From NCBI GenBank assembly GCA_002369315.1, contig DFDW01000036.1, positions 12,928-76,927 of the forward strand: 64,000 nucleotides of DNA, written 5' to 3'. This DNA comes from Ruminococcaceae bacterium UBA3818 (GTDB taxonomy: Bacteria; Bacillota; Clostridia; Oscillospirales; Ruminococcaceae). The notes below the pieces were generated by a model. It was not told the DNA's origin and did not search any database. It saw only the letters and a program-made list of their open reading frames with translations. A program made the position numbers and the translations under genes. Shown piece after piece: positions 5,997 through 54,434 of the stretch; the stretch's first letter is position 1; each line of letters starts with the position of its first letter.

Positions 5997-6482
5997 TTAC
6001 CTGTTCACTTTTTTGAAGAACAAGAAGTAGATCAAAGCGCCGTCAATAATAAAATCATATATTCGCAGCCTGTCAAACAACAGGATGGAGGATAGGATCG
6101 AAACAGCCACGATCCCCACACTCACAATTCTGGCGAATATTCCGCATCCTTTTGCCAGCCACGCAAAGTAAGCCATGACAGGCGAGCACAGCGCGAACAC
6201 TGTCCACCCGATGATAAATACCATCGAATATACCCCGTGGCTCAAGGCGGCTACGAAATAATATGTCAGCAGCATTCCAAGGCAAAATACCAAAACATTT
6301 GCCATCGCGAGCTTCGCCGTCCTGCTGTAAATGGAGATCAGAGTGCCCATCAGGATCCAGACCGCCATCTGGGAAAAGACTTCTCCCAAATTTGTTGTGA
6401 AAATATCCAACAGTCTCGCAGCAGTTCCGATGGCAAGCCCGGAACACAGCATGGAAAATGGATTCATGATACTTCTCTTCAT
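5997..6482 (-). CDS. Uncharacterised multi-pass membrane protein (intact copy of a family present three times in this window)
   Basis: MKRSIMNPFSMLCSGLAIG... behind a GGAGGA RBS, with ~5 TM segments. Paralogs at 2579..2895 and 52034..52690. Confidence 0.7.
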   Translation of the reverse strand: MKRSIMNPFSMLCSGLAIGTAARLLDIFTTNLGEVFSQMAVWILMGTLISIYSRTAKLAMANVLVFCLGMLLTYYFVAALSHGVYSMVFIIGWTVFALCSPVMAYFAWLAKGCGIFARIVSVGIVAVSILSSILLFDRLRIYDFIIDGALIYFLFFKKVNR

Positions 6483-6486
6483 CCGC

Positions 6487-6720
6487 TCATCCTCCATGAG
6501 ATTCGTCCGGGTCATGGTCGTTTCCCAAATTCCGGCGTTTGTGGTCATCTCTGTCCTCCGCGACACGGAAATTGTGTGCCGCGAAGAACATACAGGCAGC
6601 TGCGGCAAACAGGATGCCGCCATAGGCAATCCTCGCACAGACTGCCATGAGAATACCCGAGATACTCATCCATGCTCCGGCACAGATGAGCATACGGGAA
6701 GTAAAATGTTTATCCTTCAT
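6487..6720 (-). CDS. Small membrane protein
   Basis: 77-aa ORF with two hydrophobic helices and a GGAGGA RBS. Overlaps the upstream gene by 11 nt. Confidence 0.55.
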   Translation of the reverse strand: MKDKHFTSRMLICAGAWMSISGILMAVCARIAYGGILFAAAACMFFAAHNFRVAEDRDDHKRRNLGNDHDPDESHGG

Positions 6721-25200: not shown

Positions 25201-26732
25201 AAGAACAAGAACAGAGCCCGCTGAAACCGGCGGGGGAACAGAAAATACAAAAATCGGCGAGCTTGCCGCAGGGCAAACCGGTCGATGCACAGCGAGAACA
25301 GGCACATTCCGGCGAATCCCTCCAGGCGGATGCGCCAAAAGAAAGCCCTGCCGCTGAAAAACCAAGCCAGAACCCGACCGGCGAAAGGGAGCTGCTTCAG
25401 ATTTGGCAGCAGGTGCTGGGCTGCGGTGATCTGCAGCCGGACCGTTCTTTCTTTGAGCAGGGCGGCAGTTCCCTGGCCGCGCTCAATGTGCTCAGCCGCT
25501 ATTTCAACAAAGGATATGCCCTGACGCTGACGCAGTTTTATGCACATCCGACTGCACGGGAGCAGGCCGCATTGTTAAGCGGAGCAGATCAAGCGGGACA
25601 TCATACACCGCTGTCCGTTCGGAAAGAGACGGCCCCGTCCGGCAAAAAGGCCGAATGGCCGCTGGAGGCGGTACTGCTGACCGGCGCGACGGGATTTTTG
25701 GGCACGCATTTGCTGGCGGCGCTGCTGCGGGCCGGCGCGTCCAGGGTGATTTGCCTGATGCGGGACGGCAGCGGCGCGCGGCTGCTGCAGACTCTGTGCG
25801 ATTATTTTGGCTATGGATGGATACAGGAAAATACCTCAAAAATAGAAATCGTCCGCGGGGATGTGACGCTTCCGGGCCTTGGCATGGCGCCGGAAGATTA
25901 TGAATCTCTGGCGGCAGACGTGCGGGATGTGTACCACAGCGCGGCGGATGTGCGCCATTATGCGGCGGATGAAAAGACGTCGCTGGCGGTTAATTTAGGC
26001 GGTACAGAGCAGATGATAGCCTTCGCGAAAAAGGCCAAAGCCCGCCTGCACCACATCTCTACCGCCAGTGTAAGCGGAGAGTACTTGCCGGATTTGCCGG
26101 AATCCTCCGTACAGTTCGATGAGGATGATTTGGATATCGGGCAGAACTGGCAGGATAACGTATATGTAAAGTCCAAATTCCTGGCAGAGCAGCAGATTCA
26201 GCAGGCTGTCCGCAGCGGCCTGGATGCCCGGGTCTACCGGGTAGGCCGGCTGGTGGGGCGTGCCAGCGACGGAATGTTCCAGAAAAATCCGGAGAAAAAT
26301 GCGTTTTTCCTGCTTTTGCAAAGCGTGGCGGCTTTGGGCGCATTGCCGGTTTCCATGGCGGCAGCGCCGGTGGATCTGACGCCGGTGGATGTCTGCGCCG
26401 GGGAAATCGTCGCCCTGCGGGACAGCGGCGGCACGGTCTGGCATTTGCTGGGGCGAACCTATCCGCTGGAAGAAGCGGCCCGGGCGATTTGTCCGCATCT
26501 GACTGTTGTGCCGGATGAAGCATTTCCCGGTATTTTGGCAAAAGGGTTGGAAGAAAAAGGTCCGGCAGCGCTGTCGGCCCTTGTGGACTTGTGGAATCGT
26601 GTCTGTGCAGGACCCGCGATTCGTATTCGGGTAAGCGACGTAAAAACCCGGCGGCAGTTAGCCGCGCTGGGGGTTTCACGGATACAGGCAGAGCCTTCGG
26701 TTTTGCTTCGCGCATTTTGGCAGGATCGGTAA
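19236..26732 (+). CDS. Bimodular non-ribosomal peptide synthetase with terminal thioester reductase (C-A-T-C-A-T-R)
   Basis: Motifs in order. C1: HHLISDGWS. A1: YTSGSTGTPKG, YRTGD, GRIDRQVKLRG, PYTASGKVD. T1: LHGGNSLNAME. C2: HHIIGDGLS. A2: YTSGSTGQPKG, YQSGD, GRRDAQVKINGQR, PYTASGKLD. T2: FFEQGGSSLAAL. R: LLTGATGFLGTHL. Start is uncertain: GTG 19236 behind GGAGG, with in-frame ATGs at 19248 and 19263. Confidence 0.92.
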   Translation: MAEWMREEEMSFPLSQSQKNIWDLERAYSGTSINHITTSVRIQGQFRLDLLQESIRLLLASDLSLRTRIRMQEGQPVQLIAPLEEEPIPVFDFSLSGQEGVTSWAQALSKEAMPVLDGALCHFWLFKIGENDGGVLIKLHHLISDGWSQVLLCNKLQRIYLELLAGNEPQLQPAPEYRLHVDEEQQYLQSDARQKDEAYWSGILGPNCEPAALRQVHSAAVSPVGERKRCLLPKNVSYAMMRFCEQQRIAPFAVFYMALAIYLKKAVRLENPVIGVPVFNRSTFTAKQTTGMFVSTLPFWCPLDETKGFSQFSETFTEHWYDLLRHQRLPFEQIQRLAGERGMGADRLFQIALSYQDSRIFTQKSDEAAFSGCWYYSGFQAEQLCIHLSNMDGGRQFLVEYDYLTQIFSEQEIEVLHQCLTRILDEALNNPQKPLAELGILPRSLQDQVLYAFNQTEKPLPDFDLYEKFAAQVQAHPLRSAVIFDGQRIDYQNLESQAARVAAALEHVLGAQPKEEPLIAVLLPRTPHLYEAMIGAMRAGMPYLLLACDLPSGRIREILSQSGAQALLSTPQVLKTLGLEPVQIPCIDMENLPEEKAPARPAPPDSLVYVVYTSGSTGTPKGVEISRRSLLNLSQAMHPVYASGAILSVCSVGFDAFVLESAAAMLDGRTVVLPQEEEQESPQKLAELIRSFGVGFLSLTPSRLSAFLRQPDFARAVRGLRSIVCGGEAFPAKLLHRLQQLTDAQIYNQYGPSETTVAVSIKRLNEAKTITVGKPMDNCRLYVLDQWMQPLPVGVYGDLYVGGMCVGRGYRGAPQLTEQSFFPSPFEAGERIYRTGDLACWTQDGELLLAGRIDRQVKLRGLRIEPQEVAARLAAYPGVKAAAAKMLEQNGQGILAAYYTSDKQLPQNELMRYMGEYLPRYMVPSYIIRLEELPYTASGKVDENRLPAPQMEEEGSLPRTQREQELLDILRRALSQPSLGADSDYFLHGGNSLNAMEVIGEIAKKTGKSMRISDLYVCRTARRIAAFLDGEQEETTAQVWMEKAPPCDSYPVSPVQQSIYVQSCREEIGYAYHMPGAFAFSAHPDILRLQQAFQELVDREEILRTSFHMEEGGLRCRVAGRVAFDLPLLEAASLEEAAGRFLRPFDLGKAPLLRAALWTDESNRWYLLVDSHHIIGDGLSTPLILERLNLLYQGKDPQIPQMHYIDWTYHHAGEKTSLPEDRRYWGELLSPLPEGLELPTDCPRPPVFDFKGGQVKFVLPAPFSEECENFCRQKGITPFMLFVAAYGVLLSAVSGKQDLLIGTPVSGRLHPQLQKICGPFLNTLPLRLTLSEQMPLHAFWEQVRRQTADLLDHQAMPLEELVSMLELPRSLAQNTLYQAMFSLRPLRSDRFTWDGQALSYHPIPTGSAKLDLSLEAAREEDGYHFVFEYASSLFAPQTIDLYARSYETILRAMVQGAAETVDALPKLSARDRMTYWEEPNLLSSPYLNLPVHRMIENRALLTPDAIAYTCREQSVTYRQLMERARRIAALLTRAGAAKGDRIGLCCRREEGIFEGLLGILLAGCAYVPFLESYPVKRISYMMQTAGAKIVLCGESAWDKLSAGNLPCRCVRMNFSEDAPYLPCETGGEDLMYVLYTSGSTGQPKGVMLRHRALSNLYGSMKEWMAGLDGPILCTTNVVFDTFITESLLPLAMGIPVVLADDEQMLLPWEIAELMKQYAVRMMQFTPSRLRLCLGSDAFCAAAPGLDRIILVGETVSEGLFRDFRTVSQAKVLNMYGPTEAAVYVTAAELQDGVPVHIGKPLRNCRVYVLDENRRPVLPSAHGELYLAGDCLADGYIGREDLTAQAFLPDPFFPGEKMYQSGDIGRLRSDGNFDFLGRRDAQVKINGQRVELDEISEAILKVEPISEAAVLPLKKADGSSELLAFFTCDGENPPSSAQIRERLQEQLPGYMVPASYHRLPQMPYTASGKLDLPRLRQLAQPSEQVGLAGEEQEQSPLKPAGEQKIQKSASLPQGKPVDAQREQAHSGESLQADAPKESPAAEKPSQNPTGERELLQIWQQVLGCGDLQPDRSFFEQGGSSLAALNVLSRYFNKGYALTLTQFYAHPTAREQAALLSGADQAGHHTPLSVRKETAPSGKKAEWPLEAVLLTGATGFLGTHLLAALLRAGASRVICLMRDGSGARLLQTLCDYFGYGWIQENTSKIEIVRGDVTLPGLGMAPEDYESLAADVRDVYHSAADVRHYAADEKTSLAVNLGGTEQMIAFAKKAKARLHHISTASVSGEYLPDLPESSVQFDEDDLDIGQNWQDNVYVKSKFLAEQQIQQAVRSGLDARVYRVGRLVGRASDGMFQKNPEKNAFFLLLQSVAALGALPVSMAAAPVDLTPVDVCAGEIVALRDSGGTVWHLLGRTYPLEEAARAICPHLTVVPDEAFPGILAKGLEEKGPAALSALVDLWNRVCAGPAIRIRVSDVKTRRQLAALGVSRIQAEPSVLLRAFWQDR

Positions 26733-50840: not shown

Positions 50841-51302
50841 ATGGAGATTCGTGCCTATCAACCGGAGGATCTGGAAGAGGTCTACCGCCTTTTTTACGAT
50901 ACCGTACATTCTGTCAACCGTGCCGATTATGCGCCGGCCCAATTGGATGCCTGGGCGCCTGTGGAGATGGATCGTTCCCGCTGGGCCGATTCTCTTCTTT
51001 CTCACACGACCTGGGTTGCCTGCGAAAGCGGCTGTATTATCGGTTTTGGCGATTTGGCGGAAGGCGGTTATCTGGATCGGTTGTATGTTCATAAAGATTT
51101 TGTTCGCAGAGGCGTCGCCTCCGCTTTGCTGAAGCGGCTGGAGGCGTCGGCGGCCTGCCAGGGCTGCGGCCGCGTTTATGCAGAGGCTTCCATCACCGCC
51201 CGTCCGTTTTTTGAGCATTGGGGCTACCGTGTGGTGAAGCGGCAGGAAAAACCGCTGCGCGGTCAGGTGTTTCTTAATTTTGTCATGGAAAAAATGCTAT
51301 AA
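50841..51302 (+). CDS. GNAT-family N-acetyltransferase
   Basis: LDRLYVHKDFVRRGVASALLKRLE. AGGAGG RBS. Confidence 0.8.
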   Translation: MEIRAYQPEDLEEVYRLFYDTVHSVNRADYAPAQLDAWAPVEMDRSRWADSLLSHTTWVACESGCIIGFGDLAEGGYLDRLYVHKDFVRRGVASALLKRLEASAACQGCGRVYAEASITARPFFEHWGYRVVKRQEKPLRGQVFLNFVMEKML

Positions 51303-51328
51303 AGATGATTAACAAAGGAGGAAATCCC

Positions 51329-51847
51329 ATGAAAAATCCAATTGTGACCATTGAAATGGAAAACGGAAATAAAATGAAAGTGGAGTTATATCCGGAAATT
51401 GCGCCGAATACCGTAAAAAACTTTGTGTCTTTGGTGCGCAAGGGCTTTTATGATGGAGTGATTTTCCATCGCGTCATCCCCGGTTTCATGATCCAGGGGG
51501 GAGATCCCCAGGGCGTAGGCGTGGGAGGCCCCGGCTACAGCATCAAAGGGGAATTCTCGGCCAACGGCTTCCACAATCCGCTGAAGCACACCAAAGGCGT
51601 GATTTCGATGGCGCGCTCTTCCCGTCCGGACAGTGCCGGCAGCCAGTTCTTCATCATGGTAGATGATGCGCCTCATCTGGATGGAAGCTATGCGGCGTTC
51701 GGAAAGGTAATCGAGGGAATCGAAGAGGCAGACCGTATTGTGTCGGTCAGACGGAATCTGTCGGACAAACCGTTGGAGGATCAGCGAATGGCGAAAGTGA
51801 CGGTTGAAACGTTCGGCGAAGAGATCGGAGAACCGGAGACCCTATAA
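51329..51847 (+). CDS. ppiB: Cyclophilin-type peptidyl-prolyl cis-trans isomerase
   Basis: YDGVIFHRVIPGFMIQGGDPQG...GVISMARS...DSAGSQFFI. Confidence 0.9.
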   Translation: MKNPIVTIEMENGNKMKVELYPEIAPNTVKNFVSLVRKGFYDGVIFHRVIPGFMIQGGDPQGVGVGGPGYSIKGEFSANGFHNPLKHTKGVISMARSSRPDSAGSQFFIMVDDAPHLDGSYAAFGKVIEGIEEADRIVSVRRNLSDKPLEDQRMAKVTVETFGEEIGEPETL

Positions 51848-51885
51848 AAGCCGCAGGCGCGGCCTCTTATTTTCAACAGATCAAC

Positions 51886-51928
51886 AAAAAAGCCTGCTCT
51901 TAAGGGACGGTGTTCTTAAGACAGTTAA
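51886..51928. repeat. Left arm of a 43-bp imperfect inverted repeat
   Basis: The reverse complement ttaactgtcttaagaacaccgtcccttaagagcaggctttttt matches 52905-52947 at 35 of 43 positions, including the first 12 nt exactly. Confidence 0.8.
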
Positions 51929-52033
51929 CAGCCACAGTAGTTTGCACTGCTGTGGCTGTTCTTACGCTTTATCCTGTTATGTGATAATATGGAACCAAAC
52001 GGACCTGCAAATCTTGAATTTGTGAGGATAATT

Positions 52034-52690
52034 ATGATAAAGTTTTTGAATGATATAAGGAATGCAGAAAATCTTATATCCAATAATAGAAAAATTATAA
52101 ATACCATAGCTCTATTGTTCCTTGGAATAGCGTTGGGGACGTTTTCAAAACTTTTGGATTTTCGTCAAACTGAACTTCCAAGTGTGCTTATGGCGATAGA
52201 TGGAGCATTAGATGTTCATAATTTCCTTGGACGTTTTGCAATTTGGGTATTGATTGCACTGTGTATTTCTATTTATAGTAATTCTGCAATAAGAGCAAGC
52301 ATTAATGTTTTTGTATTCTTTGTTGGTATGGTTGCAAGTTACTATTTGTATTCAAACTATATTGCAGGATTTTTTCCAAGAAGTTATGCGATGATTTGGT
52401 TTGGATTTACAGCTGTTTCTCCATTATTGGCTTTTGTCTGCTGGTATGCAAAGGGGAAAAGCAAACTGGCATTTATACTGTCGGCACTGATTTTGGCAGT
52501 ATTGTTCAATATGTGCTTTGTATATGGATGCTGGTATTTTAATGTAAGGTCTGTTATGGAAGTGATAGTCTTTATTATTGGACTTATTGTTTTGAGGAGA
52601 GACACATTGAGGAGTTCTGCGCTAATGGGAACAATAAGTATAGTTCTTGCATTTCTGTTTAATATTGTTATTCCATTCCATTGGGGATAG
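52034..52690 (+). CDS. Multi-pass membrane protein, divergent paralog of 5997..6482, in visibly AT-rich DNA
   Basis: FAIWVLIALCISIYSNSAIRASINVFVFFVGMVASYYLYS...IWFGFTAVSPLLAFVCWYAKGKS parallels MAVWILMGTLISIYSRTAKLAMANVLVFCLGMLLTYYFVA...IIGWTVFALCSPVMAYFAWLAKGCG. GAGG RBS. Confidence 0.7.
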   Translation: MIKFLNDIRNAENLISNNRKIINTIALLFLGIALGTFSKLLDFRQTELPSVLMAIDGALDVHNFLGRFAIWVLIALCISIYSNSAIRASINVFVFFVGMVASYYLYSNYIAGFFPRSYAMIWFGFTAVSPLLAFVCWYAKGKSKLAFILSALILAVLFNMCFVYGCWYFNVRSVMEVIVFIIGLIVLRRDTLRSSALMGTISIVLAFLFNIVIPFHWG

Positions 52691-52722
52691 ACAACTTCCA
52701 GTTTGTCGAACAGATACTAAGG

Positions 52723-52899
52723 GCGCACTTCTATACGGGGCAAGCCCCGTATGTGCGCTCTGCGAGGCCGAACAACCCGGACACCTTGAATGTCCGGGCT
52801 GTTTTGCGTCACTGCGTTCCGAACAAGGGGCTGAACCCCTTGCGCCGCTTGGCGGCTTTCCTCTCAAGGTAAAAGGCGTGACCAGAGCCACGCCTTTTT
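52723..52899 (+). other. GC-rich cluster of five hairpins plus two ~26-nt direct repeats (possible structured RNA or palindromic-unit array)
   Basis: Hairpins at 52723-52758, 52776-52798, 52824-52842, 52844-52856 and 52872-52899 (the last followed by TTTTT). Direct repeats TGCGCTC-TGCGAGGCCGAACAA (52753) and TGCGTCACTGCGTTCCGAACAA (52804). Confidence 0.6.
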
Positions 52900-52904
52900 C
52901 GTAC

Positions 52905-52947
52905 TTAACTGTCTTACCAGCACCGCCCTAAAAGAGCGGGCTTTTTT
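52905..52947. repeat. Right arm of the 43-bp imperfect inverted repeat
   Basis: ttaactgtcttaccagcaccgccctaaaagagcgggctttttt. See the left arm at 51886-51928. Confidence 0.8.
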
Positions 52948-52995
52948 CTTTGGTCGAATCTATGTTTTGCTTGATATGCCGCAGACAAAGGAAAT

Positions 52996-53592
52996 CTAAT
53001 TGGATTCCTCAATGATTTCTTCCGCTTTTACATGGTCGGAGGAACCGGCAGTAATAATCTCGACAAATGTGTTTTTGTCGTGCAGGTAATAGTGTTTCAG
53101 ATGCGCGTTGGAATCCTGCGGGATGGTGCTGATCGCATAGCCTTTGTACTTCCCGATGTTCCAAACTTGCGGCAGGGAAGTTTCGCTCATTTCATCCTGC
53201 ATTTTATCGAACAGGCCGAAAGCGAAATTTTCCAGGCTGTATTCGTTTCGGTCTTCCTTGACGGAAATACGGCAGGTCTCCAATGTTTTTCCGTTCAGCA
53301 AAAAGATTTCTTCCGTTGTATAAGCTTCCGGCTGAGAACACAGCAGGTTTCCTTCTTCATCCACATAATCACGAAGCAGCTCCACATCCTGAGCAATGGC
53401 CTCAGCTTCTTCATCTGTTATTACAAACCAGGGAGCAGGGAAGGAAAAGGAAAGATTCATCGACGGAATGGAAACAGTATCCCCCTCCACCTTAACGCAA
53501 TAATCGGCGGAAGAACCGGTGCATCCCGCCAATAAGGGGATCAGCACGGCGACAGCCAGCAGCAGGGAAATGAAACGATTGGTTTTTATCAT
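52996..53592 (-). CDS. Hypothetical lipoprotein
   Basis: MIKTNRFISLLLAVAVLIPLLAGCTGS lipobox. Confidence 0.65.
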   Translation of the reverse strand: MIKTNRFISLLLAVAVLIPLLAGCTGSSADYCVKVEGDTVSIPSMNLSFSFPAPWFVITDEEAEAIAQDVELLRDYVDEEGNLLCSQPEAYTTEEIFLLNGKTLETCRISVKEDRNEYSLENFAFGLFDKMQDEMSETSLPQVWNIGKYKGYAISTIPQDSNAHLKHYYLHDKNTFVEIITAGSSDHVKAEEIIEESN

Positions 53593-53633
53593 ACAGACAA
53601 ATTCCTTTCTGATGTGAAATAGCAAGGGAAGCG

Positions 53634-54434
53634 TCAGTTTTTTGCCGCAGTCAGCAAAGCTTCCCGACGGCCGGGAAAGAAAAATTCCAGCGCGTATTGC
53701 AAGGATTGATCCCAGAAACCCCACTCGTGGGTGCCGGGCCACTCCCGATAGGAAAATTCATACGGCAGCGATTGGATGACGTCCCGAAAACGGGTGTTAT
53801 GCGTATACAGAAAATCTTCTGTTCCGCAGGTGACCATCACTTTTGGCCGCTGCTGCTCGGGAAGCCGGGCAGTTTTTTCCACCAGATAAAACAAATCATC
53901 CTCCGGCTTTATTACAAGATCTTCTCCGAAAATCGCCTTTGCTTCTTCCAGCAGCCCGGGTTCCGTTTGGGCAAGGGTAGCACGCAGCGCTTCCATATCC
54001 AGGCATCCGGAAAATCCGGAGCACCCCGCAAACAGGTCGGGACGGCGCAGGCCTAATTTAATTGCCCCATAGCCGCCCATGGAAAGACCAGCCACGAAGC
54101 GATCTTCCCGCCGGGCGCTCAGATGAAACAGCCGCTGGCAGGCGGCCGGCAGTTCTTCCGTCACATAAGAAAAATAAGAAAGGCCCATGGCCATATCCGT
54201 GTAAAAGCTGCGCTGTACTTCGGGCATTACCAATGCGACACCGTAGGCGTTCGCATACCGCTCCGCTGAGGTCATGCGGGTCCAGACATCCGCGTTTTCC
54301 CCATGCCCGTGCAGCAGGTAGACAACAGGGCATTCCGCTTCCGGCACCGTGGCCCGGTCAAAGGGCAGAACGACCGCAAGGCCGGTATCCATGCCCAGCG
54401 AGTGAGAACGCAGAGAGCCTTTGAAAAAAGCCAT
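53634..54434 (-). CDS. Esterase-family serine hydrolase (esterase D / S-formylglutathione hydrolase-like)
   Basis: VYLLHGHGENADVW and the nucleophile elbow GLSMGGYGA. GGAGG RBS. Confidence 0.8.
   Translation of the reverse strand: MAFFKGSLRSHSLGMDTGLAVVLPFDRATVPEAECPVVYLLHGHGENADVWTRMTSAERYANAYGVALVMPEVQRSFYTDMAMGLSYFSYVTEELPAACQRLFHLSARREDRFVAGLSMGGYGAIKLGLRRPDLFAGCSGFSGCLDMEALRATLAQTEPGLLEEAKAIFGEDLVIKPEDDLFYLVEKTARLPEQQRPKVMVTCGTEDFLYTHNTRFRDVIQSLPYEFSYREWPGTHEWGFWDQSLQYALEFFFPGRREALLTAAKN

Follow-up and report, generated by a model that had tools for sequence, protein, structure and literature searches.

We found that positions 51904-52931 of the window (the whole stretch of DNA that was analyzed, 64,000 nucleotides) form a 1,028-bp mobile element with a single gene, inserted exactly within the loop of a bidirectional terminator. 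This terminator lies between ppiB (PF00160) on the left and a lipoprotein gene, which encodes a LAGC lipobox, on the right. The element is a mobile cassette because an identical gene within a 99%-identical unit is present in at least four genomic contexts and a precise empty site exists in conspecific genomes. The most probable explanation is a non-autonomous integrative, mobilizable cassette, namely, a minimal derivative of the Tn4451-like serine-recombinase IMEs of gut Clostridia. The mobility of the cassette and its terminator-loop target are shown by the comparisons below, whereas the enzymes involved are inferred. There are no data on an excision product, a circle, or recombinase activity, and the support for excision and re-integration is only indirect (empty/occupied polymorphism and multiple sites).

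The cassette lies within an inverted repeat that is genuine but composite rather than a single unit. When 51886-51928 is reverse-complemented, 35 of its 43 positions agree with 52905-52947, and the inner 12 nt of both arms are identical (TTAACTGTCTTA), as an earlier note on this sequence had claimed. The top-ranked inverted pair in a repeat search was 51883-51928/52905-52950 (46 nt, 80%). Shuffling 51700-53100 (dinucleotide-type, 200 times) gave best 43-nt inverted matches of 25.1 on average and 31 at most, never 35. The view of the 43-bp arms as a unit in the earlier note failed. Each arm consists of a 16-nt half of the host terminator, a 2-nt AA crossover, and a 25-nt element TIR; the element itself accounts for no more of the arms than 51904-51928 and 52905-52929.

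On the left, the terminator half (51886-51901; A6 plus GCCTGCTCTT) corresponds to the attB-derived arm of attL; it was delimited by the empty alleles, and homology to the other insertion contexts ends here. It is followed by the AA of the left junction (51902-51903) and the left TIR (51904-51928, forward strand; GGGACGGTGTTCT, core TAAGACAGT, and TAA), an attP-derived half-site that starts with the first bases common to all contexts. The core and spacing of this TIR are also present in other cassettes and in recombinase-bearing islands. On the right, the second attP-derived half-site (52905-52929, forward strand; TTA, core ACTGTCTTA, and CCAGCACCGCCCT) ends with the last bases common to all contexts. 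The AA of the right junction (52930-52931) was assigned from the context comparison and a family survey, and the right terminator half (52932-52947; AAGAGCGGGC plus T6), the attB-derived arm of attR, from the context comparison and the empty alleles. AA is present at both junctions in all contexts of the cassette, and the identity between attL and attR is limited to these 2 bp. The ends are ~25-nt imperfect inverted repeats, which are common to a large family. Both attP, formed by joining the ends, and the target attB are quasi-palindromic, with folding energies of -31.1 kcal/mol for the attP joint and -20.9 kcal/mol for the empty attB. The outer hairpins were also considered as a palindromic direct target duplication. 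This reading was rejected, as the arms match at 14/19 positions as inverted repeats vs 10/18 as direct repeats (hand count), and it is also contradicted by the single terminator at the empty site.

Empty alleles were located through a look-up of PpiB. Seven conspecific contigs with flanks 98.9-99.5% identical have the empty site AAAAAAGCCTGCTC-[G/A]AAAAA-GAGCGGGCTTTTTT, and in these alleles the lipoprotein gene is exactly 1,028 bp closer. Two other conspecific contigs are occupied as in the window, and one has a different element in the same loop. The loop rebuilt from the occupied allele is TTAAAA vs GAAAAA or AAAAAA in the known empty alleles (two loop bases differ), and an exact search of JGI metagenome contigs for the predicted empty site with the loop TTAAAA gave no match. 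Beyond this locus, the identical 218-aa cargo protein was found in at least four genomic contexts. The 1,028-bp unit is 99% identical across these contexts, only between AA-GGGACGG... and ...CCGCCCT-AA, and each context has its own terminator, the two halves of which form the flanks. The proposal of a non-autonomous mobile cassette in the earlier note therefore held, based on these contexts and the conspecific empty sites. The outcomes that it had named as refuting, such as arms that occur nowhere else, were not met: the arms were found elsewhere, and empty sites exist. Its suggestion that the arms double as terminators held in part, as a single host terminator that predates the insertion and was split by it accounts for the A/T runs and outer stems. 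Once the cassette is in place, its inner hairpins are a more plausible source of termination than these split arms.

Inside this frame are, in order, a hairpin, a putative promoter, an RBS, the membrane-protein gene, a predicted oriT, and a terminator. No transposase or integrase ORF was found within the cassette, and no large serine recombinase ORF in 51904-52931. What had been described as a hairpin, an AT-rich membrane gene, a GC-rich hairpin cluster, ppiB and lipoprotein flanks, and the lack of a transposase or integrase was confirmed. The inner left hairpin (51927-51960, forward strand; repeat search, dG -24.8) has a 15-bp stem followed by TTCTT. Judged from sequence alone, it is likely a terminator or insulator against read-through from ppiB. 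Hairpins are found at the equivalent place in the cassettes C17 and C38 and in both C32 cassettes of the same genome, with stems that are compensatory or wholly different. The promoter inferred at 51962-51990 (forward strand) has a weak -35 (TTACGC), a 17-nt spacing, and a TG-extended -10 (TGATAATAT), which would place the transcription start near 51995. Both C17 and C38 keep a promoter of this kind at the equivalent position (TTGCAT-17-TAGTAT and similar); a simple consensus promoter scan did not flag it in the window, and it is weak by consensus.

The cargo gene (52034-52690, forward strand; stop codon at 52688-52690) encodes a DUF6518-like membrane protein of 218 aa with roughly six TM segments. 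Its start lies behind the RBS GAGGA (52024-52028), which is part of a 5′ border motif (52013-52033, forward strand; CTTGAATTTGTGAGGATAATT) that accompanies the cargo ORF into unrelated elements and also precedes unrelated cargo ORFs. A 3′ border motif (52691-52711, forward strand; ACAACTTCCAGTTTGTCGAAC) directly behind the stop codon is likewise kept after unrelated cargo ORFs and after the cargo ORF in other elements. The ORF is AT-rich, with a GC content of 0.338 vs 0.517 for the window. The protein matches PF20128 at E 0.004, 15 of 46 homologues also match this family (best E 4.9e-6), and its homologues comprise 2,121 clusters. A PDB profile search gave no credible match, only weak ones (best E 0.33). 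With an AlphaFold2 model of poor to moderate quality (pLDDT 64.4), a Foldseek search found nothing below E 0.3 and no PDB fold relative. A resident relative of the protein (34% identical) is encoded at 5997-6638 on the reverse strand of the window. Delivery of a resident-family paralog, as suggested earlier, is thus supported only in part, because there is no evidence that this relative had a role in the delivery. Near the right end, an inner hairpin at 52871-52898 (AAAAGGCGTG...CACGCCTTTT; repeat search, dG -14.9) may be a bidirectional terminator for the cargo gene and the incoming lipoprotein-gene transcript, a role that is inferred from sequence only. A terminator hairpin is present at the equivalent position in three of the four other cassettes (C17, C32a, and C32b), and the GGCGTGAC stem is also found in C17 and C32a.

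The GC-rich hairpin cluster at 52712-52870 (GC 0.585) is predicted to be a MOBQ-type oriT on the reverse strand. Its nic-core AGTGCGCCCTTA, the reverse complement of 52718-52729, agrees at 12/12 positions with the nic consensus reported for Gram-positive MOBQ systems (AgtGCGCcCTta/TAAGTGCGCCCT; PMC3832669, PMC10333310). A hairpin (52732-52752) and an outer GCGCAC/GTGCGC stem lie 5′ of the nic-core on the minus strand; this inverted repeat is just 5′ of the putative nic site, predicted within AGTGCG/CCCTTA on that strand, and the hairpin stems covary among copies. Homologous oriT blocks (up to 91% identity) are located 90-170 nt upstream of DUF3847-like and MobA_MobL genes in genomes G002, G017, and G018 and in contig C15 of the cassette's own genome (G000). 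These blocks lie beside MOBQ relaxase genes at G002 L293 (91% identical), G017 L294, G018 L299, and G000 C15. The cassette itself contains no MOBQ relaxase gene, and Rfam, searched permissively over 51000-54000, returned nothing beyond a chance match (E 0.26), so the GC-rich cluster has no known RNA family there. The nic-core behind an inverted repeat resembles the MOBQ oriT of the RSF1010/R1162 type, but the surrounding multi-hairpin region of ~150 nt differs and is specific to the Clostridia elements examined here. The assignment as oriT rests on the nic-core, the hairpins, and the homologous blocks, without nicking or mobilization data.

The cassette belongs to a family that is widespread in gut Clostridia, and no description of this family was found in the literature searched. 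At least four other cassettes in the source genome (C17, C38, C32a, and C32b) have an equivalent frame with different genes, and the inner 25 nt of the arms recur at many loci. For about 26 two-ended family members, the rebuilt targets fold at a mean of -20.2 kcal/mol vs -6.1 kcal/mol when shuffled. In the corresponding 52 strand-wise readings, the dinucleotide is identical on both sides in 42 (AA/TT in 33 and AT in nine), 13 nt outside the core, and it is unpaired between the stem arms in 50. Because the target stems have no common sequence, what the recombinase recognizes may be the structure of the terminator DNA (an extruded hairpin or a single strand) and not its sequence. A scan of genome contigs with the 16-mer ACTGTCTTACCRGCAC was too short a query; nearly all of its 120 matches were chance matches inside genes, and only locus L199 was informative. 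Some family members carry genes of antibiotic-modifying families, namely, GNAT and the aminoglycoside-2′′-adenylyltransferase family PF10706. Decayed relatives include an oriT with a truncated relaxase (C15), a truncated recombinase (C37), and the C38 cassette without a right end.

A bolder reading would propose two nested cassette systems. Below the layer of serine recombinase and terminator loop, the cargo ORFs would be units themselves, bounded by the 5′ motif CTTGAATTTGnnGAGG (with the RBS) and the 3′ mini-hairpin motif AAyTTCCArTTTGTCGAAC. By analogy with integron attC, such units would be swapped among cassettes, IMEs, and ICEs of many Firmicutes through an unknown, possibly site-specific, gene capture. 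We consider this combined reading unlikely.

A candidate for the recombinase of the single-layer cassette is present in the same genome. A 6.8-kb island (G000 C3:27024-33816) has the same end architecture and encodes, 35 nt from one end, an intact DUF4368 large serine recombinase of 608 aa (L151:5448-7271; Resolvase, Recombinase, Zn_ribbon_recom, and DUF4368 domains, with a YCRLS catalytic motif). The stretch ACTGTCTTACCAGCA of the cassette's right TIR, which spans the core and the 6 nt next to it, matches the island end beside this gene at 15/15 positions. Over the arms, the right side of the island matches the cassette well (core plus 9/13) and the left side poorly (4/13), and its crossover is TT. 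In this island, in L199 (enzyme 90% identical), in the decayed C37, and in G009 C15, the large serine recombinase gene ends in a hairpin, followed by ~25-30 nt, the core, 13 nt, the crossover, and the split terminator. For transfer, no intact MOBQ relaxase (only a 77-aa remnant) and no VirB4-like gene were found in G000, so that the cassette may be stranded there.

In the model that we favor, a DUF4368-type large serine recombinase, with the intact 608-aa enzyme of the C3 island as a candidate, would act in trans. It would pair the circular joint attP (...CACCGCCCT-AA-GGGACGGTG..., a GC-rich palindrome; in longer form predicted as ...CAGCACCGCCCT-AA-GGGACGGTGTTC...) with a terminator hairpin as the palindromic attB (proposed target AAAAAAGCCTGCTCAAAAAAGAGCGGGCTTTTTT), and strands would be exchanged at the central AA/TT of the terminator loop. 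The oriT at 52712-52870 would be nicked by the MOBQ2 relaxase of a co-resident IME, and the single strand would then pass through the conjugation pore of a third element. After integration, the cargo gene would be expressed from the cassette's own promoter, and the two inner hairpins would substitute for the terminator split by the insertion. We propose that, with termination restored by the inner hairpins, insertion at this site has almost no effect on the host.

Several alternatives could account for parts of these observations. Under one of them, a MITE-like cassette is moved by a DDE transposase that recognizes the TIRs, makes a 2-bp target-site duplication (AA/TT/AT), and prefers palindromic targets as in IS30. 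The TIRs, the identical 2 nt on both sides, the absence of an internal enzyme, and the many short copies are consistent with this, and a 2-nt identical flank, which would also be expected from a 2-bp duplication, counts against the serine-recombinase model. However, no DDE transposase was found in the 19 two-ended elements surveyed or in larger ones, and no autonomous IS with these TIRs among 80 + 80 loci or in the cassette's own genome. Moreover, a serine-recombinase gene abuts the same end type in four elements, whereas the IS3 genes at L080 are next to ends of another type and are not enclosed by the cassette repeats. This alternative is very unlikely. We give as little credence to the possibility that the cassette has no self-standing movement, such that its copies are in-place deletion remnants (CIME) of a full-length IME, or passengers of larger elements combined with homologous recombination. 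Decayed relatives do exist (C15, C37, and C38), and helpers are missing from G000. Yet a 1,028-bp unit with identical boundaries and 99% identity is found in at least four unrelated terminators, independent deletions are not expected to yield identical products, and the empty/occupied difference within the species is exactly the unit.

It is also highly improbable that tyrosine recombinases move the unit, whether it is viewed as an integron-type (attC) cassette or as a Xer/dif module like the pdif modules of Acinetobacter plasmids. In its favor are the single promoter-bearing gene between inverted sites, the hairpin-rich ends, and the C17 copy that reads GGTGTGCATAA, which we take to be close to the E. 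coli XerC arm. Against it, tyrosine recombinases need an identical overlap of 6-8 nt, but only 2 nt are common to attL and attR, and the cassette is bounded by two inverted ends instead of carrying a single attC and is solitary in terminators, not arrayed beside attI/intI. The Xer/dif reading (28-bp sites with 11-6-11 XerC/XerD organization) was dropped, as the stretch resembling a left arm occurs in one copy and no second (XerD-type) arm is conserved across copies. Finally, there may be no element at all, and the repeat could simply reflect a convergent gene pair whose two terminators resemble each other. Terminator halves do make up the outer 16 nt of each arm, but this explanation is all but excluded by the shuffle test, the empty sites, the context comparison, and the recurrence of the inner 25 nt at many loci.

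Among known systems, the closest are the Tn4451/Tn4453 IMEs (TnpX) and the DUF4368/TndX-like clade of large serine recombinases. Recombination by the Tn4451 enzyme TnpX occurs at 2-bp identities, involves no RDF, and shows little target specificity (PMC5704250), and the DUF4368 clade is multi-targeting, with AA/TT cores, A-rich 5′ flanks, and T-rich 3′ flanks (Durrant et al. 2022, PMC10083194). The cassette shares with them the 2-bp crossover, imperfect inverted half-sites, many targets, the AA/TT core with its A-rich 5′ and T-rich 3′ flanks, and an oriT (predicted here) for mobilization in trans; islands related to it carry a DUF4368 recombinase beside the same end type. A bidirectional terminator fits the A-rich, AA/TT, T-rich pattern of DUF4368 targets. 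The cassette differs in having neither a recombinase nor a relaxase, in its size of about 1 kb with one gene, and in targeting specifically the loops of terminator hairpins. This target rule is not stated in PMC5704250 or PMC10083194, and the word "terminator" occurs zero times in either. In addition, Tn4451 has a MobV relaxase according to a review (PMC5704250), vs the MOBQ-type oriT predicted in the cassette. The MOBQ2 IMEs and IME_Rho_tet of gut Clostridia and Faecalibacterium (PMC12904643, PMC12084326) share its habitat and hosts. They have a serine recombinase, ~21-bp TIRs, a 3′ boundary tens of bases past the recombinase stop, and a relaxase (PF03389) with a DUF3847 partner and often TnpV, and this gene set adjoins homologous oriT and ends in our data. 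In contrast to the cassette, they are about 10 kb, autonomous for integration, and inserted mainly in MAFF2 ORFs.

The dependence on helpers is shared with CIMEs, which keep att sites after the loss of integration and transfer genes (PMC5704250, PMC12084326), and with iOriT islands, which have only an oriT (bioRxiv 10.64898/2026.01.13.699239), as the cassette retains attL, attR, and a putative oriT. With attL/attR and without integration and transfer genes, it has the gene content of a CIME. IMEs have homologues of its leader, oriT, and ends, and no intermediate of the cassette itself was found. However, CIMEs are described as decay products beside a helper at one specific site, whereas the cassette is a compact, insulated, and standardized expression frame, solitary at many sites in many species and with interchangeable cargo. 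In the Bacillus cereus group, MIC231 likewise consists of a passenger gene between IS-like inverted repeats, without an enzyme and mobilized in trans. MICs originate from DDE insertion sequences and duplicate their target sites. The cassette resembles such MICs and MITEs in this organization but has the ends of serine-recombinase elements and a predicted oriT. Similar to integron gene cassettes, it is a single-gene unit with interchangeable cargo and structured recombination sites, but it contains no attC or intI, is not part of an array, and has its own putative promoter and two inverted ends.

If the model is true, gut Clostridia hold a pool of self-insulated "plug-in" genes of about 1 kb, the movement of which needs three helpers (recombinase, relaxase, and conjugation pore). 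Landing would be possible in almost any intrinsic terminator, with neighboring genes unharmed. This would explain part of the strain-level gene flux in metagenomes, as well as contig breaks and chimeric contigs at these repeats. Since family members include GNAT and PF10706 genes, the route would be relevant to resistance-gene surveillance. The terminator-loop rule poses a testable question about the recombinase, namely, recognition of sequence vs structure, and the reported A-rich/AA/T-rich motif of multi-targeting DUF4368 recombinases would simply represent terminator hairpins.

The 43-nt imperfect inverted repeats that the earlier note had recognized around an AT-rich cassette (window positions 51886-51928 and 52905-52947) held, with 35 of 43 positions complementary and the inner 12 nt identical. 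This was the top-ranked inverted pair in a repeat search (46 nt, 80%), and 200 shuffles of 51700-53100 gave a best 43-nt inverted match of 25.1 on average and 31 at most. The treatment of each arm as a single unit had to be corrected: an arm consists of 16 nt of host terminator, AA, and 25 nt of element. The 1,028-bp element itself (51904-52931) lies between a cyclophilin gene (ppiB; PF00160) on the left and genes for a lipobox protein and then an esterase on the right. It contains an inner left hairpin with a 15-bp stem (51927-51960) followed by a T-rich run, an AT-rich cargo ORF of 218 aa (52034-52690; GC 0.338 vs. 0.517 for the window) with the ribosome-binding site (RBS) GAGGA at 52024-52028, a GC-rich hairpin cluster (52712-52870), and an inner right terminator hairpin (52871-52898) with an A-run and a T-run on its two sides. 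The proposed cargo promoter rests only on positional conservation and a TG-extended -10, and was not picked up by a consensus promoter scan. We infer that the two inner hairpins can stop transcripts from both neighbors and from the cargo gene; they would take over from the split host terminator, giving a host-neutral design.

The cassette is real and mobile. The identical 218-aa cargo protein is recorded in at least four genomic contexts, between which 99% DNA identity is confined to 51887-52931. When the junctions are aligned, the common unit starts at AA/GGGACGGTGTTCTTAAGACAGTTAAC and ends at CACCGCCCT/AA, and its flanks are the two halves of one terminator, which differs in each context: AAAAAGCTGCCGC[AA]...[AA]TGGCAGCTTTTT, AAACCCCCTGCGCAA[AA]...[AA]TGCGCAGGGGGCTT, and, in the Clostridiales MAG locus L302 (SFFE01000001), AAAAAAATCCCCCGCGCAA[AA]...[AA]TGCGCGGGGGATTTTT. 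Of ten places that encode the identical PpiB and whose flanks match the window at 98.9-99.5% identity, seven are empty, two are occupied as in the window, and one has another element, with a TnpV gene and the end G[AA]TGGCAGGTGTTCGTAAAACAGT, in the same loop. The empty alleles read AAAAAAGCCTGCTC-GAAAAA/AAAAAA-GAGCGGGCTTTTTT (dG -20.9), and in them the lipoprotein gene is exactly 1,028 bp nearer. A plain terminator is also found at this site in G007 and G002, which represent more distantly related species of the genus. The occupied allele rebuilds to the loop TTAAAA, two bases of which are unlike the empty alleles; this is probably a loop polymorphism.

The ppiB loop is occupied by another element in other strains and is therefore a recurrent landing site. 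In locus L166 and in contig C34 of the related genome G001 (L021), the loop holds a different, larger element with a TnpV gene adjoining its end, and synteny with the lipoprotein gene is gone in G001. In two metagenome contigs (L159 and L161), the flank on the left of the cassette and that on its right derive from different terminators. These mixed flanks reflect either an assembly chimera formed through the 1-kb repeat or genuine recombination between copies.

The choice of target follows a rule across the family. Among approximately 26 two-ended members, giving 52 strand-wise readings with the junction defined 13 nt outside the 9-nt core of the ends, the same dinucleotide was present on both sides in 42 (AA 17, TT 16, and AT 9). 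The rebuilt targets fold at a mean of -20.2 kcal/mol, compared with -6.1 for shuffled sequences, and in 50 of 52 readings the stem arms enclose the dinucleotide as unpaired bases. No sequence is common to the target stems.

Without its gene, the cassette frame is found again in the 1.93-Mb genome that contains the window (G000, of which the window is C30:12928-76927). In order, the frame comprises an end, a hairpin, a promoter region, an RBS, a post-stop motif, a GC cluster, a terminator, and a second end. The other cargoes encode a 58-aa TM peptide (C17:39864-40255), a SAP-domain protein (C32:39291-40740), a SAM methyltransferase (C32:78623-79622), and an HD-like protein (C38:~25350-26016; right end degenerate). 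The terminal core GGTGTyCGTAAAACAGTT / AACTGTTTTACGrACACC is common to all of these cassettes. Searching one-genome-per-species contigs for exact matches to this 18-mer returned at least 117 loci. Nearly all are from gut Clostridia, with hosts including Oscillospiraceae, Faecalibacterium prausnitzii ATCC 27768, Lachnospiraceae, Christensenellaceae, Merdimmobilis hominis, and Pseudoflavonifractor, and many are at contig ends, as expected for assembly-breaking repeats. Both ends were found within 8 kb in 19 of 80 loci; these elements are 0.4-4.6 kb long (mostly 0.7-1.9 kb), and 17 of them carry the GC-cluster signature. Their cargo includes GNAT, aminoglycoside-2''-adenylyltransferase family, HAD hydrolase, PNPOx-like, methyltransferase, DUF3021, DUF559, ECF sigma fusion, and S51 peptidase genes. 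Antibiotic-modifying families are represented at loci L066 and L031 (PF10706 aminoglycoside-2''-adenylyltransferase family; GNAT).

The enzymology of the cassette is inferred, as is its connection to any particular recombinase. Because attL and attR share an identity of only 2 nt, serine recombinases fit and tyrosine recombinases are disfavored. A 6.8-kb island in G000 (C3:27024-33816, L151) lies in the split terminator AAAAAAAGACTGC...GCAGTCTTTTTTT. Besides McrB/McrC and a NikA-like protein, it encodes an intact 608-aa large serine recombinase with Resolvase, Recombinase, Zn_ribbon_recom, and DUF4368 domains and the YCRLS motif. The recombinase stop codon is 35 nt before the end ACTGTCTTACCAGCA; this end agrees with the window's right arm at 15 of 15 positions, and the left arms match poorly. 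The order of recombinase stop, hairpin, core, 13 nt, crossover dinucleotide, and split terminator recurs in a Faecousia MAG (L199; enzyme 90% identical, crossover TG on both sides), in a 6.7-kb element of a congener (G009 C15), and in a decayed copy at G000 C37:5500-6784, where the serine-recombinase gene is truncated and the end, in a terminator, is degenerate (ACTTTCTTG core). A solitary right-end-like site is present at C38:44008-44025. None of the elements surveyed was found to have a DDE transposase between such ends. The C3 enzyme is a possible, inferred helper for the cassette. TnpX of Tn4451 recombines 2-bp identities without an RDF and with low target specificity (PMC5704250), and the "multi-targeting" DUF4368/TndX clade uses TT/AA cores with A-rich 5' and T-rich 3' flanks (PMC10083194); both papers are silent on terminators. 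The literature searched describes relatives, namely autonomous IMEs, CIMEs, and iOriT islands; minimal cassettes of this kind and the terminator-loop rule were not found in it.

The GC cluster (52712-52870) is very likely a MOBQ-type oriT, with nicking and mobilization inferred from sequence. Its minus strand reads ...GCCCCGTATAGAAGTGCGCCCTTAG, in which AGTGCGCCCTTA agrees at 12 of 12 positions with the Gram-positive MOBQ nic consensus and also matches the core of the general MOBQ consensus. As in RSF1010-type origins, an inverted repeat precedes the nic core, and its stem covaries among copies (GGGGC/GCCCC vs. TCTC/GAGA). In four places, homologous blocks precede DUF3847-like and MobA_MobL genes by 90-170 nt; MOBQ2 IMEs of Faecalibacterium are defined by this gene pair (PMC12084326). 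Three of the blocks are in genomes G002 (91% identity to the block in the window), G017, and G018, and the fourth is in a decayed mobilizable element in G000 (C15:~198400-199700), where the block is directly upstream of the DUF3847-like gene and MobA_MobL is truncated after ~70 codons. Neither an intact MOBQ relaxase nor a VirB4-like gene was detected in G000 (96% completeness); therefore, transfer from this host would need incoming helpers.

The cargo gene encodes a DUF6518-like membrane protein that has roughly six TM helices; its close relatives number in the thousands in gut metagenomes and also occur in ~80 species. PDB sequences, an AF2 model (pLDDT 64.4), and Foldseek gave no basis for assigning a function. 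A resident relative in the window (5997-6638, minus strand; 34% identity over 147 aa) has normal GC and is clustered with genes for other small membrane or secreted proteins. In most other species, the same ORF (84-94% nucleotide identity) lacks the cassette ends, leader, and oriT but keeps the immediate borders 5' TTGAATTTGTGAGGrTAATT-ATG and 3' TAr-ACAACTTCCAGTTTGTCGAAC. In the window, these are the RBS-containing CTTGAATTTGnnGAGG (52013-52033) and the mini-hairpin AACTTCCAGTTTGTCGAAC (52691-52711). At other loci, among them L306, L310, L317, L335, L323, and L308, the same borders surround unrelated ORFs in other cassettes or accompany the ORF into unrelated ICE/IME contexts, and in some cases a copy of the 3' motif comes after every ORF of an array. 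The ORFs seem to be exchanged precisely at these borders by an agent that remains unexplained. In L302, the leader and ORF are 98-100% identical to those of the window, the oriT 93%, and the right end, with consensus-type arms, only 75%. From this comparison, we conclude that the cassettes are mosaics of exchangeable modules.
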